Below are positions 6,505 to 15,568 of a stretch of 64,000 nt of DNA, piece after piece. The notes under the pieces were generated by a model that was given only the letters and a program-made list of their open reading frames with translations, did no database searches and was not told the DNA's origin. This stretch comes from a virus. The stretch lies in the IMG/VR virus record IMGVR_UViG_3300024502_000013, positions 9,995 to 73,994 of that record. The stretch is one strand, 5' to 3'. Within the stretch, counting starts at the first letter, position 1. Every line of letters starts with the position of its first letter. The position numbers were made by a program, and so were the translations under genes.

Positions 6505-6540
6505 AGGGGTCTTGACAGACCCCTTTTTTTATAGTATAAT
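6505..6540 (+). terminator. terminator overlapping a consensus promoter
   Basis: AGGGGTC-TTGACA-GACCCCT plus T-run; TTGACA(6512)-17-TATAAT(6535). Confidence 0.8.
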
Positions 6541-7177: not shown

Positions 7178-7337
7178 TTTAAACTCCTTATACTATAATA
7201 GTATATAGAATTATGAACATTTTCATAAACTATCACAACGATTAATAAAATCAATTAGATTTTCATTTAAAATAGTGATATACTATGATAAGTAATCTAT
7301 GAGGTTACTTAATTTTTTAATACTTGAAAGGGAAAAA

Positions 7338-7871
7338 ATGAAAACAGTTGGTGATAAATTAGAAGCATTTGCCGTAACAGGCATCAATCCTGGTAAAGAT
7401 GATTTTTTTACTATTACAGAAAAATCATTTGAGGGCAAATGGAAAGTGATTGTATATTATCCAAAAGATTTTACATTCGTTTGTCCTACAGAGATTGTTG
7501 CATATGATAAGTTGGCACAAGACTTTGAGGACCGTGATGCAGTTCTTTTGACTGGCAGTACAGATAATGAATTCTGTAAATTGGCTTGGCAAAATGCACA
7601 TGAAGATTTGAAGAAAATCAAACACATTCAATTTGCTGACACTCAGCGTGGTGATTTGAGTTTGATTGAACAGTTGGGTGTATTCTATGCACCTGCTGGT
7701 GCTGCTCTTCGTGCAACATTCATTGTTGATCCTAATAACGAAATTCAACATGTCACTGTGAACAACCTCAACGTTGGTCGTTCTCCAGAAGAAACCTTGC
7801 GTGTATTGGATGCATTGCAAACTGGTGAATTGTGTGCATGTAACCGTAAAGTTGGTGGGGAGACACTATAA
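7338..7871 (+). CDS. ahpC: peroxiredoxin AhpC
   Basis: YPKDFTFVCPTE, ALRATFIVDP, GRS..E, resolving Cys. Confidence 0.95.
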   Translation: MKTVGDKLEAFAVTGINPGKDDFFTITEKSFEGKWKVIVYYPKDFTFVCPTEIVAYDKLAQDFEDRDAVLLTGSTDNEFCKLAWQNAHEDLKKIKHIQFADTQRGDLSLIEQLGVFYAPAGAALRATFIVDPNNEIQHVTVNNLNVGRSPEETLRVLDALQTGELCACNRKVGGETL

Positions 7872-8377
7872 TGGCATTCATCGAGCAAGTCAAAGATGCC
7901 TTGCCTGATTACGCAAAGGACACCAAGTTAAATCTTGATGCTGTCCTTTTGCGTAGTTCATTAGATGTGGATGTGGCTATGGGTTGTGCCGTAGCTGCAC
8001 TTGCCGCAACAGGTAATGGTAAAGTGTTGGCTGTTATGTTAGCGGACAATCCTGTCCATGCTGCAAGTGCTATGACAGCCGCAAGTTTGATGGCACAAAA
8101 CAACGTATGGTATCCATATGTTGAAATGGCAGACGACGAACAACTGAAGGGATTGCCAGCACAGTTACGCATGAACGCTATTGCAAATCATGGCGGAACC
8201 ACTAAGGCAAACTTTGAAGCATTCAGTCTTGCAGCAAGTATTGTTGGTAAGTGTCATTTCTGTGTCAAGGCACACTATGATACCTTGAAAAAGGAAGGTT
8301 ATACTGTTGAACAACTTCGTGATATAGGTCGTATCGCATCAGTAATGAACAGTGTGGCAAAAGTTTTAAATAGCTAA
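7871..8377 (+). CDS. ahpD: alkylhydroperoxidase AhpD
   Basis: LPDYAKDTKLNL, MAQNNVWY, CHFCVKAH (CxxC). Confidence 0.92.
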   Translation: MAFIEQVKDALPDYAKDTKLNLDAVLLRSSLDVDVAMGCAVAALAATGNGKVLAVMLADNPVHAASAMTAASLMAQNNVWYPYVEMADDEQLKGLPAQLRMNAIANHGGTTKANFEAFSLAASIVGKCHFCVKAHYDTLKKEGYTVEQLRDIGRIASVMNSVAKVLNS

Positions 8378-8378
8378 A

Positions 8379-8807
8379 ATGAAACAAAAATTTCGTGATG
8401 CTTATATGAAAGTGGCTGAGACCTTTGCGGAGTTATCCTCCGCAAGGCGTCTCCATGTAGGAGCTATCGTTGTCAAAGATGATAGAATTATCTCAATCGG
8501 ATACAACGGTATGCCATCTGGTTGGGATAATAACTGTGAAGATGAGGTAACTTATTTTCCCAGAATCAAAGAACTCAAAACCAAACCAGAGGTTCTTCAC
8601 GCAGAAACAAACGCAATTGCCAAACTGGCAAAGTCCACCGAATCTGGACTTGGTGCTTCTTTGTTTGTTACCCATGCACCTTGTTTGGACTGTGCAAAAC
8701 TAGTCTACCAATCTGGTATCAATTCTGTTTATTACCGAAATAGTTACCGGGACGACAAGGGTATAAAATTCCTAGAAAAAGCAGGAGTTACCGTAGAAAA
8801 AATCTAG
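8379..8807 (+). CDS. cd: dCMP deaminase
   Basis: GYNG, HAETNA, PCLDC. Confidence 0.92.
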   Translation: MKQKFRDAYMKVAETFAELSSARRLHVGAIVVKDDRIISIGYNGMPSGWDNNCEDEVTYFPRIKELKTKPEVLHAETNAIAKLAKSTESGLGASLFVTHAPCLDCAKLVYQSGINSVYYRNSYRDDKGIKFLEKAGVTVEKI

Positions 8808-8838: not shown

Positions 8839-9345
8839 ATGAATTTAAAGATTCTAAACTGTCCAGATAAGTATTTTAAACCTTATGTGACAAGGGCGGC
8901 GTTGTTTTACGCCAAGGAACTCATTCCAAACACACGGATACGCAATAACTGTTACACCACTATAAGATTTGATAGTAGAATCAAGGACTATGGTTCCTGT
9001 GGTGCGGAGGGGTATAATACAAAGAACGAACCCCGTGAATTCCTTATTGAAATACATCCTGGAATAGGCGCCAGAAGTATCTTGGAAACATTGGCGCATG
9101 AAATGGTTCATGTAAAACAGTTGATTTACCATGAAACCAACGATGACCTTTCCATGTGGAAGGGCAAGAGAGTTAATTCTGATACGCTGGATTATTGGCA
9201 TCATCCATGGGAAATTGATGCACACGGCCGTGAAACTGGCCTTTTAACCAAGTTTGCAGTTCAGGAATGTCTATGGGAAATCTTTGAAGGTTTCAAGGAT
9301 CCAAATGTACCGATAGTTTCGGTACCGATTAAGTGGAAAGCATAA
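8839..9345 (+). CDS. HExxH metallopeptidase-like protein
   Basis: LAHEMVHVKQ..PWEIDA; CTAAATA late-type box at 8810. Confidence 0.7.
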   Translation: MNLKILNCPDKYFKPYVTRAALFYAKELIPNTRIRNNCYTTIRFDSRIKDYGSCGAEGYNTKNEPREFLIEIHPGIGARSILETLAHEMVHVKQLIYHETNDDLSMWKGKRVNSDTLDYWHHPWEIDAHGRETGLLTKFAVQECLWEIFEGFKDPNVPIVSVPIKWKA

Positions 9346-9367
9346 AAAAATATTTTCAAAAAAGTTC

Positions 9368-9396
9368 TTGCCAAGGAAGCAAAACGCCTATATAAT
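9368..9396 (+). promoter_or_regulatory. sigma70 promoter of the leader peptide and tRNA island
   Basis: TTGCCA-17-TATAAT; ATG at 9403 sits at the expected start site. Confidence 0.75.
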
Positions 9397-9402
9397 AACA
9401 CT

Positions 9403-9507
9403 ATGACAAATTCAATACACAAACCTTTCAGTCAGCCAACATATCATGCAATTACATTTAATTGCGCCGATGAGTCATGGCTCTTTGGGTCTTGTGTAGG
9501 AGAATAA
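9403..9507 (+). CDS. putative attenuator leader peptide MTNSIHKPFSQPTYHAITFNCADESWLFGSCVGE
   Basis: Leaderless 34-codon ORF; its 3' part carries the antiterminator strand. Confidence 0.65.
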   Translation: MTNSIHKPFSQPTYHAITFNCADESWLFGSCVGE

Positions 9508-9573
9508 TACTAGAGTATTAAACCAAACTTCAAACATAAGACCCAACCCCTCAAAAGGTTGGGTCTTTTGTTT
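9485..9573 (+). terminator. terminator/antiterminator pair
   Basis: Terminator AAGACCCAACC/GGTTGGGTCTT plus TTGTTT; alternative 13-bp helix 9485-9497 with 9534-9546. Confidence 0.8.
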
Positions 9574-9600
9574 GGTGTTTCAAAAAAACAACACCATGTA

Positions 9601-9661
9601 TTGCCAAAATCTTTGGTTCTGGTATAATACAAAACTTGTTCTTTAAAAATTTGTAGAGTCA
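9601..9661 (+). promoter_or_regulatory. promoter with boxA-like leader (copy 1)
   Basis: TTGCCA-16-TATAAT with TGn extension, then ACTTGTTCTTTAAAAATTTGTAGAGTCA. Confidence 0.75.
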
Positions 9662-9668
9662 AATTTGT

Positions 9669-9746
9669 TCCCCGTTCGCCTAGTCTGGCCTAAGGCACTG
9701 GTCTTTGAAATCAGTATCGTTGGTTCGAATCCAACACGGGGTGCCA
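9669..9746 (+). tRNA. tRNA-Gln(TTG)
   Basis: Cloverleaf, loop CTTTGAA, CCA. Confidence 0.92.
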
Positions 9747-9868: not shown

Positions 9869-9958
9869 AAGTGTGGCAGAGTCCGGTTTATTGCAGCAGT
9901 CTTGAAAACTGCCGGTCGTGCAAACGGCCCGTGAGTTCGAATCTCACCGCTTCCACCA
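9867..9958 (+). tRNA. tRNA-Ser(TGA)
   Basis: Long variable arm, loop CTTGAAA, CCA. Confidence 0.93.
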
Positions 9959-9962
9959 TTTT

Positions 9963-10083
9963 TAGGATACTTACAGCAAAAAATATTTCGCCTTCTAAGC
10001 GAGAGGTTGTTGGTTCGAGTCCAACTTTTTCCACTAGGGAAAAATAGCGCAATTGGTAGCGCACTAAAAAGAGTATCCTGTTG
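9963..10083 (+). ncRNA. CAGCAA-scaffold RNA A carrying a circularly permuted tRNA-Arg(TCT)
   Basis: Stem AGGATACTT/GAGTATCCT, ACAGCAA; cargo order is anticodon arm, T arm, acceptor stem, D arm. Confidence 0.8.
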
Positions 10084-10102
10084 TTTAAATTAAGGAGGAT
10101 GT

Positions 10103-10881: not shown

Positions 10882-10941
10882 TTGACAAAGTTGCCGGTTG
10901 TGGTATAATACACACTTGTTCTTTAAAAATTTGTAGAGTCA
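10882..10941 (+). promoter_or_regulatory. promoter with boxA-like leader (copy 2)
   Basis: TTGACA-16-TATAAT with TGn extension, then a 28-bp exact repeat of 9634-9661. Confidence 0.8.
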
Positions 10942-11248: not shown

Positions 11249-11256
11249 AAAAATTT

Positions 11257-11345
11257 GGAGCTTGTTCCCTACGGCGGACTGTAAATCCGTTACCTGAATT
11301 GTAGGGTGGTCAAGGTTAGTGGTTCGATTCCATCAGGCTCCACCA
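11257..11345 (+). tRNA. atypical tRNA-Tyr(GTA) lacking a canonical D-arm
   Basis: Acceptor GGAGCTTG/CAGGCTCC, loop CTGTAAA, TTCGATT, CCA; no D hairpin. Confidence 0.75.
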
Positions 11346-14122: not shown

Positions 14123-14140
14123 ATTTTGAAAGGAAATGTT

Positions 14141-15568
14141 ATGAACACTTTTGTGAATGCCGTTATGAATCAAGAAGCTCGTACCACTAATGGTATGAAG
14201 GCTCGTAAGTCTACCGCCAGTGCGGTCGTGGACTTGTTCTATAACATTGGTGCAAGCCGTGGCAAGGACATTGTTCCTGCTTTTACCGCTGCATTGGTTG
14301 AGAACCGTGAGTTGGCACTCCGTGTAGCTGCATGGGCTCGTGATGCTCGTGGTGGTGCAGGTGAACGTGAATCGTTCCGTAACATCCTCCGTTATTTGGA
14401 AAAGACTGATGTTGAAGCCGCAAAGGCACTCTTGGCTAAAGTTCCTGAACTTGGTCGTTGGGATGACATTTTTGTTTTCCAAACCGATGTGATGAAGTCT
14501 ATGGCTTATACCATGTTGGGTGACGCTTTGCGTTCTCGTAATGGTTTGGCTGCAAAATGGACTCCACGCAAAGGACCTATTGCGGCAGAAATTCGTGCGT
14601 TCTACGGAATGTCACCAAAATTCTACCGTAAGTCCTTGGTTGAATTGACCAAGGTTGTTGAAACCCAAATGTGTTCTAAAGAATGGGATGCCATTAACTT
14701 TAGTCATGTTCCTTCCGTAGCAGCTGCTCGTTATAAGAAGGCCTTCAACCGTAATACTCCAAAGTATGCGGAATATGTTGCCGAACTTATGAAAGATCCT
14801 AAGGATCGTACCATGGAAGTGAAGGTCAATGCAGGTGCGGTTTATCCGTATGATGTATTGAAGGGTCGTATCAGCCACTACTTGCCTTTTGACAAGACCG
14901 AATTGGACTTGATTCAAAAGCAATGGGAAGCATTGCCAAACTATGTAGGTGACGCAAGTATACTACCTCTAGTTGACGTTTCTGGTTCTATGTCCTGCCA
15001 TGCAGGTACGAACACCAAATTGTCTTGTTTAGAAGTTGCAGTGTCTCTTGGCCTGTATCTTGCAGACAAGAACAAGGGTAAGTTTAAGGATACCTTCCTG
15101 ACTTTCTCTGGTAGTCCAGAACTGATGCACCTAAAAGGCAACATCAACCAAAAGATTGACCAAATGGTTAAATCTAATTGGGACATGAACACTAACCTGA
15201 ACAAGGCATTTGAAAAAATCCTTGACACTGCGGTGAAGGGTGGTGTTCCACAAGAAGAAATGCCAGCGATGGTGTTGATTCTGTCTGACATGCAGTTTGA
15301 CGGTTGCGTTGAACATGATGACAGTGCAATTGAAATGATTGCACGTAAGTACCAAGAAGCTGGATACGAACTTCCAAAGGTTGTATTCTGGAACTTGAAT
15401 GCTTCATATGGCAACAGCCCTGTGAAGTTTGACAAGTCTGGTACTGCTCTGGTATCTGGATTCTCACCAGCAATCGTGAAACCTTTGCTGAGTGGAGACC
15501 TAGATGGTTTCACACCAGAGTCCGTGATGCTTAAAACCATCATGGATGAACGTTACAAAGTAATTTGA
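14141..15568 (+). CDS. DUF2828-type TROVE/Ro60-like helical protein with C-terminal vWA (MIDAS) domain
   Basis: RDARGGAGER, GRWDD, AAKWTPR in the N-terminal region; VDVSGSM, NTNL, ILSDMQFD, VFWNL in the vWA region; AAAGGA RBS. Confidence 0.8.
   Translation: MNTFVNAVMNQEARTTNGMKARKSTASAVVDLFYNIGASRGKDIVPAFTAALVENRELALRVAAWARDARGGAGERESFRNILRYLEKTDVEAAKALLAKVPELGRWDDIFVFQTDVMKSMAYTMLGDALRSRNGLAAKWTPRKGPIAAEIRAFYGMSPKFYRKSLVELTKVVETQMCSKEWDAINFSHVPSVAAARYKKAFNRNTPKYAEYVAELMKDPKDRTMEVKVNAGAVYPYDVLKGRISHYLPFDKTELDLIQKQWEALPNYVGDASILPLVDVSGSMSCHAGTNTKLSCLEVAVSLGLYLADKNKGKFKDTFLTFSGSPELMHLKGNINQKIDQMVKSNWDMNTNLNKAFEKILDTAVKGGVPQEEMPAMVLILSDMQFDGCVEHDDSAIEMIARKYQEAGYELPKVVFWNLNASYGNSPVKFDKSGTALVSGFSPAIVKPLLSGDLDGFTPESVMLKTIMDERYKVI

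Follow-up and report, generated by a model that had tools for sequence, protein, structure and literature searches.

The stretch of DNA analysed here (64,000 nt, referred to as the window) comes from a 74-kb IMG/VR virus record and belongs to an uncultured T4-like phage that is present in river and other freshwater metagenomes and whose DNA polymerase is 51% identical to a T4-like cyanophage homologue. The window carries a run of 25 tRNA genes that begins with tRNA-Gln(UUG). In front of this run lies an element, complete in less than 250 nt, in which a promoter (P1) is followed by a short open reading frame (ORF), predicted hairpins, and an intrinsic terminator; a second promoter (P2) and a boxA-like sequence lie between the terminator and the first tRNA gene (Table 1). 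Both promoters fit the sigma-70 consensus. ARAGORN called no tRNA-Tyr in the island, and a sub-threshold tRNA-Sec-like match in Rfam (11256-11342, 30.5 bits) may represent an unconventional tRNA-Tyr.

Table 1. Features of the element and of the start of the tRNA island (positions in the window).
Feature	Positions	Strand	Basis or remark
Promoter P1: -35 TTGCCA, 17-nt spacer, -10 TATAAT	9368-9396	+	consensus scan, 11/12
Leader ORF, 34 codons + TAA, predicted leaderless ATG	9403-9507	+	encodes MTNSIHKPFSQPTYHAITFNCADESWLFGSCVGE
Segment 1 (ACACAAACCTT), predicted partner of segment 2 in untranslated RNA	9416-9426	+	minimum-free-energy fold
Hairpin H2, codons 11-27, conserved TATCGC...GNGATA core	9434-9482	+	fold; arms co-vary
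Segment 2 (TTGGGTCTTGTGT), antiterminator 5' strand, codons 28-32	9485-9497	+	duplex energy, covariation, nascent folding
Hairpin H3 over stop codon, predicted (AATAC...GTATT)	9506-9520	+	fold; AGAAC/GTTCT at the same place in relatives
Segment 3, antiterminator 3' strand and terminator 5' arm	9534-9548	+	pairing and covariation
Segment 4, terminator 3' arm and T tract (GGTTGGGTCTT TTGTTTGGTG)	9557-9577	+	covariation on alignment A2
Promoter P2: TTGCCA, 16-nt spacer, TATAAT, TG before the -10 box	9601-9628	+	consensus scan
boxA-like pre-tRNA leader TGTTCTTTAAAAATTTGT	9637-9654	+	2 exact matches versus 0.05 expected
tRNA-Gln(UUG), first gene of the 25-tRNA run	9669-9746	+	ARAGORN

Several further observations were made in the surroundings of the element. 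A gene directly upstream of P1 (8839-9345) encodes a 168-aa protein with an HExxH motif (HEMVH) that falls in no Pfam family and corresponds to phrog_10499; the gene is conserved beside the element, and relatives of the protein are encoded in more than 560 viral stretches. Farther upstream, adjacent genes (7299-8377) specify an AhpC/TSA peroxiredoxin and a CMD/AhpD-like protein; a dCMP deaminase gene (8379-8807) follows, and these may be auxiliary redox genes. A 65-codon ORF between a promoter at 6512 and tRNA-Met (6750) was considered as a second attenuator and rejected because no terminator lies between them. Just after tRNA-Ser, a weak Rfam match to YrlA (Y RNA-like) was recorded at 9976-10090 (33 bits, E = 3.5e-4) together with a weak Rfam tRNA match at 9975-10033 (31 bits). 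Together with the ORF at 14126-15568, which matches the PHROG 'RNA-binding protein' family phrog_850 (E = 1e-136), the YrlA-like RNA could form a Ro/Y-RNA-like pair. Contig depth summed over 9916-10016 was 121-420 in four riverine metatranscriptome runs, as compared with approximately 15-30 in the flanks, and many contigs of approximately 31 nt at 9929-9958 correspond to the 3' part of tRNA-Ser(UGA); this peak may be due to a stable RNA of very high abundance or to a tRNA sequence that is shared with other organisms. At the leader itself, the contigs of these runs, the only form of the data used, end at 9328-9431 and restart at 9553-9684, with none spanning the leader, and are uninformative on expression or termination.

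Relatives of the element were gathered by three anchors, namely the upstream 168-aa gene, the pre-tRNA leader motif, and a motif derived from the leader. In uncultured T4-like phages, 62 distinct homologous elements were identified in this way, and a leader-anchored scan added 34 distinct peptides. With approximately 100 distinct copies, the family is widespread among freshwater T4-like phages, and its members have a layout in common: P1, ORF, internal hairpin, stop-codon hairpin, terminator, usually P2, boxA-like sequence, and tRNA. Searches of cultured-phage genomes returned tRNA matches only and no isolate relatives at the DNA level. A search of Rfam with region 9397-9582 (E <= 1) returned no family, the sole match being one to psRNA14 at chance level (9530-9599, 27 bits, E = 0.41).

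The preliminary description of this locus proposed that P1 initiates at about the ATG of the leader ORF, and the promoter and start codon are present as described, with the ATG 6 nt 3' of the -10 box and its A at the usual transcription start position; the P1 mRNA would be leaderless. P1 occupies the equivalent place in 56 of the 62 distinct homologues. Directly 3' of the promoter, a short ORF with start signals is found; although insertions and deletions are numerous, none of the 62 homologues has lost its frame, which spans 31-45 codons. In 27 homologues the start is leaderless, with the ATG exactly 6 nt past the -10 box, and in 28 it is led by a Shine-Dalgarno sequence; in the latter, a leader has been inserted and an ATG, GTG, or TTG is found 29-40 nt past the -10 box with a purine-rich Shine-Dalgarno sequence before it. 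Since the translation start has been rebuilt while the frame was kept, these elements are hard to reconcile with a non-coding RNA, and translation of the leader ORF looks real. The peptide, as judged from sequence comparison, is not conserved as a protein would be, and its sequence drifts: variable sites by codon position are 53, 56, and 85, amino-acid-changing differences among variable codons exceed synonymous ones (89 versus 36), and no Pfam match was obtained for the peptide. Certain residues (EYR, D..W, GFCV) nevertheless recur across the leaders of relatives.

An intrinsic terminator stands between the ORF and the tRNA genes, and a mutually exclusive antiterminator draws one of its strands from the end of the ORF. 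Both had been proposed in the preliminary description and both hold in the window. The terminator (9538-9548/9557-9567) consists of 11 bp, 6 of them G-C pairs, followed by a T-rich tract. Segment 2, TTGGGTCTTGTGT (9485-9497), can form a continuous 13-bp helix, including one G-U pair, with ACATAAGACCCAA in segment 3 (9534-9546), and this 2:3 duplex, with a short extension, has an energy of -23.0 kcal/mol (RNAduplex). Conservation in related phages of a diverse-codon upstream ORF together with a covarying antiterminator had been put forward as the decisive comparison, with a lack of conserved antiterminator complementarity counting against the proposal. Both features are kept: the terminator is found in all 62 homologues, and the 2:3 duplex is present in every one of them at -13 to -25 kcal/mol.

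RNAalifold applied to a MAFFT alignment of the whole element recovered the terminator only, since indels disrupt the alignment of the 5' half, and helices were therefore assessed by alignment-free tests in which each strand was paired with its own partner or with swapped partners. Among 30 diverse representatives, the 2:3 duplex averaged -19.2 kcal/mol with own partners versus -15.3 kcal/mol with swapped ones (z = -7.5, 0 of 5000 permutations). The terminator arms, included as a positive control, gave z = -11, and the negative-control pairings 1:3, 2:4, and 1:4 gave no own-versus-swapped signal. When scored on a neutral MAFFT alignment, the 2:3 helix has 78.5% pairing and double changes in 8 of its 13 pairs, and its covariation score is 0.139 as compared with 0.101 +/- 0.008 after shuffling (0 of 500); for the terminator, pairing is 91.7% and the score is 0.274 versus 0.138. 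The changes can be followed in individual registers. The T run of segment 2 and the A run of segment 3 vary in length together, as in the pairs GGG-TTTTGTGT / ACACAAGA-CCC, GGGG-TTTGTG / CACAAA-CCCC, and GGGGG-TTGTGGA / TCCACAA-CCCC. Moreover, the ACA[C/T]AA position is unpaired in the terminator and yet co-changes with segment 2 (ATGT:ACAT, GTGT:ACAC, GTAT:ATAC).

As a whole, RNA 9403-9580 folds at -59.5 kcal/mol versus -33.7 +/- 4 kcal/mol for shuffled sequences (z = -6.45). In addition to the terminator and the antiterminator, the arms of H2 are matched to one another (-18.3 kcal/mol with own versus -15.2 kcal/mol with swapped partners, z = -6.3), and the H2 core and its covariation indicate that the recurring EYR...D..W residues reflect a constraint on the RNA. 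A 1:2 helix is predicted in the minimum-free-energy folds of most representatives, but it is weak (mean -11 kcal/mol) and covariation of this helix was sought twice and not found (z = 0.4); on these predicted folds, the role of segment 1 in the switch is uncertain.

At equilibrium, the full-length RNA adopts the terminator with P = 0.97 wherever a ribosome footprint is placed, so any switch must be kinetic, as in known attenuators. Folding programs cannot show a kinetic switch, and nascent transcripts that end before segment 4 were folded instead. In these, the 2:3 helix has a probability of 1.0 when no ribosome is present or when the A site lies anywhere from codon 2 to codon 25; the value drops to 0.7 at codon 26, approximately 0.1 at codon 27, and approximately 0 over codons 28-34, and is 0.12 for a ribosome at the stop codon. 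The modelled positions thus agree with the earlier suggestion that a ribosome at the end of the ORF would mask the antiterminator and that one stalled earlier would permit it, with the boundary at codon 26. It should be noted that some relatives have their stop codon 16-19 nt past the core of segment 2, such that a terminating ribosome would cover that segment only partly.

The leader ORF is unusual in its amino-acid composition. In the window, its 34 codons specify 19 of the 20 amino acids, Arg alone being absent as originally noted, which has a probability of approximately 0.012 given the composition of the window's own proteome; random peptides of window composition would be expected to hold 15-17 distinct residues. 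Among the 62 distinct leaders, 50 use the full set of 20 amino acids, 10 use 19, and 2 use 18. A further 24 of the 34 additional distinct peptides are complete, for a total of 74 of 96. As a control, the remaining small ORFs of matching length from these loci were counted: only 16 of 4638 (0.3%) encode all 20 amino acids, and at least 2 of those 16 are further leader homologues. Completeness holds across leaders that look unrelated, such as L020 (31 residues) and L087 and L123 (42-43 residues), with Met frequently supplied by the start codon alone. Substitutions between relatives spare residues that occur once (139 observed versus 372 expected), and the full set is retained in 88% of pairs of relatives as compared with 29% in simulations with the same number of random replacements. 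These two observations indicate that it is the composition of the leader, rather than its sequence, that is under selection.

The position of residues within the leader also matters, since a ribosome stalled in the last approximately nine codons covers segment 2, and residues confined to this tail would probably go unsensed. Val is confined to the last codons in 40 of the 62 leaders and Gly in 24, largely because these residues are coded by segment 2 itself (GGG, GTG, GTA). In the zone before segment 2, the family averages 17.3 distinct residues in 25.6 codons versus 13.6 expected. The window leader is among the least diverse of the family: its G, L, V, and W are confined to the tail, and the 14 distinct residues in the 24 codons 5' of the antiterminator strand are ordinary, at chance level. 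The leaders contain no codon runs of the kind expected of regulatory codons and show maximal diversity instead, and this completeness in place of codon enrichment is the point of departure from classical attenuators. The diversity fits the content of the array, in which ARAGORN called tRNAs for 19 amino acids, along with the possible unconventional tRNA-Tyr.

The gene that follows the element is consistently a tRNA gene. At every one of the 67 leader-anchored loci that extend far enough downstream, the next gene is a tRNA: tRNA-Gln at 61, tRNA-Pro at 5, and tRNA-Ser at 1. As tRNA-Gln nearly always comes first, a sensor specific for Gln was entertained, and it was rejected since leaders hold only 1-2 Gln codons, at positions that are not conserved. 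P2, which is located 30 nt downstream in the window, had been raised as a caveat, and this concern is real for the window: by its consensus match, P2 is a source of expression that is independent of the switch, and the switch may add little there. Most relatives possess P2, but at least 16, comprising 11 from the first set and 5 tRNA-Pro loci, do not. In these phages, the tRNA begins 3-53 nt past the T tract with no promoter between, so the only visible sigma-70 route to the first tRNA is through the attenuator. In the five tRNA-Pro loci (L203, L221, L231, L233, and L234), which represent a sub-lineage, the homologous leader and terminator are followed by tRNA-Pro at 3-10 nt past the T tract, a distance so short that the 5' end of this tRNA would need to be processed from a read-through transcript.

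The boxA-like sequence recurs within the island. A second exact copy of TGTTCTTTAAAAATTTGT lies at 10917-10934, and both copies are found just 3' of consensus promoters in the tRNA island. The motif is also present in more than 100 related viral contigs, frequently in two copies per island, and directly follows the terminator in several relatives that lack P2. It resembles rrn-type boxA leaders in following tRNA promoters and in its close similarity to the E. coli rrn boxA, TGCTCTTTAACAA, a sequence that occurs in a primer of a study that also mentions boxA (PMC2176067). This analogy suggests rrn-style antitermination of phage tRNA operons by TGTTCTTTAAAAATTTGT. The candidate site is a downstream neighbour of the attenuator and not part of the switch.

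Collectively, the element is probably a ribosome-mediated (trp-type) transcription attenuator that heads a tRNA island and whose leader samples nearly the whole repertoire of amino acids and tRNAs. The conserved diverse-codon ORF, the covarying 2:3 helix, and the modelling of ribosome positions all lend support to the general tRNA-depletion attenuator that was initially proposed. In the suggested mechanism, P1 would initiate at the ATG of the 34-codon leader and, as polymerase advances, segment 2 (9485-9497) would pair with segment 3 (9534-9546) and block the terminator at 9538-9567. A ribosome that keeps pace with polymerase would reach the last approximately nine codons or the stop codon and cover segment 2, allowing the terminator to form, and under such prompt decoding the P1 transcript would end at approximately 9570-9580. 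Slow decoding anywhere in approximately the first 25 codons would leave segment 2 free when segment 3 emerges, and the resulting antiterminator would allow read-through to proceed via the boxA-like site into tRNA-Gln and the remaining array. The outcome would be a demand-driven feedback whereby slow decoding yields more phage tRNA. We infer the direction of control, the shortage of charged tRNA as the signal, and the use of the switch against tRNA depletion.

Several known systems resemble this element in part. The trpL, hisL, pheL, and leuL leaders and the multivalent thrL and ilvGMEDA leaders likewise combine a promoter-proximal short ORF with an intrinsic terminator, and in them, as in the phage element, the antiterminator shares a strand of the terminator and takes its other strand from the 3' end of the ORF, such that ribosome position decides between the two. 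The phage element differs in that it lacks a run of regulatory codons and samples nearly all amino acids, controls tRNAs rather than biosynthetic enzymes, is phage-borne, and is leaderless in half of the family. The 1:2 helix of trp gives termination when the leader is untranslated; the corresponding anti-antiterminator of the phage element is without covariation support. T-box riboswitches are also cis-acting terminator/antiterminator switches and respond to tRNA charging, but they act by direct binding of a single uncharged tRNA and do not require translation, whereas the phage element has a conserved ORF; no specifier loop, T-box sequence, or stem I platform was found in 9397-9582 via Rfam. 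The erm and cat leaders are examples of leaders that respond to antibiotics or translation stress. Another leader attenuator of this type is bmrB of bmrCD in Bacillus subtilis (PMC4191407). As proposed for the phage element, leaders of the bmrB, erm, and cat type respond to general translation trouble through slowed ribosomes on a short ORF that relieve downstream termination or occlusion; they differ in controlling resistance genes via arrest peptides or drug-bound ribosomes, as opposed to amino-acid completeness and tRNA output in the phage element. The nearest published functional parallel is the trn tRNA array of Anabaena sp. PCC 7120, which is induced under translational stress (PMC8421152, PMC10272220). 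Like the phage array, trn is a long accessory tRNA array, and its expression rises when translation is impaired. The trn array is, however, controlled by a protein repressor, TrcR, and resides on a cellular megaplasmid, and PMC10272220 mentions no leader, attenuator, uORF, or terminator. In the literature searched, neither a pan-amino-acid leader nor an attenuator of phage tRNA genes was found.

Other explanations of the locus were weighed against this reading. An attenuator of the same build could report on global translation (ribosome availability, elongation rate, or ribosome-targeting toxins and antibiotics), with amino-acid diversity being secondary. The architecture needs merely a ribosome that lags behind polymerase, the leaders carry no single-codon runs, Val and Gly sit mostly where stalling cannot be sensed, and antibiotic-responsive leader attenuators such as bmrCD behave in this manner (PMC4191407). 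Yet a sensor of global translation would have no reason to keep every amino acid, as 74 of 96 leaders do versus 0.3% of controls, nor to spare single-occurrence residues from substitution, and the genes under control are tRNAs; we regard this explanation as unlikely.

Two further explanations dispense with the switch. P1, the ORF, and the terminator, followed by a strong P2, resemble two separate units in the window, and could thus represent a free-standing micro-protein gene with its own promoter and ordinary terminator beside a tRNA island that is transcribed from P2; the recurrence of EYR, D..W, and GFCV across relatives could be taken in the same sense. These conserved residues, however, coincide with the H2 stems and segment 2, which covary as RNA, and amino-acid-changing differences exceed synonymous ones in a peptide that has no Pfam match. 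A micro-protein role would not explain why the end of the ORF pairs and covaries with the terminator arm, and at least 16 relatives lack P2 and have a tRNA 3-53 nt past the terminator. Further, we know of no protein family that needs all 20 residues in 31 positions, and a micro-protein gene is considered very unlikely. Alternatively, the P1 transcript of approximately 170 nt might be a structured non-coding or dual-function small RNA whose 3' end is merely set by the terminator, given its strong conserved secondary structure and its own promoter and terminator, and given that attenuator-derived small RNAs that act in trans exist (PMC6614838). An ORF that stays open in each of the 62 distinct copies although indels are frequent, two alternative designs of translation start, a complete amino-acid set, and the lack of an Rfam match make this explanation extremely improbable, and a role in trans could coexist with attenuation rather than replace it.

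Little is known about the means by which phages regulate their tRNA genes. Phage tRNAs are now thought to offset a mismatch in codon usage and host defences that cleave tRNA. If the element is the attenuator favoured here, its leader might serve as an all-amino-acid 'test message' of a tRNA homeostat, in which a shortage of any charged tRNA boosts the phage's own complete tRNA set, a proposal to which we assign an even chance. Such a shortage could stem from the codon demand of the phage, from host anticodon nucleases, or from other tRNA-depleting defences. The leader would then be a natural, compact sensor of translation speed, one that is available in approximately 100 natural variants and that is directly testable in E. 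coli. If true, the homeostat would be the sensing arm of a phage counter-defence and would represent a new logic for the control of tRNA genes. With a leader selected for completeness, attenuation would no longer be confined to 'one amino acid, one pathway' but would cover decoding capacity as a whole, with the tRNA pool as its object.
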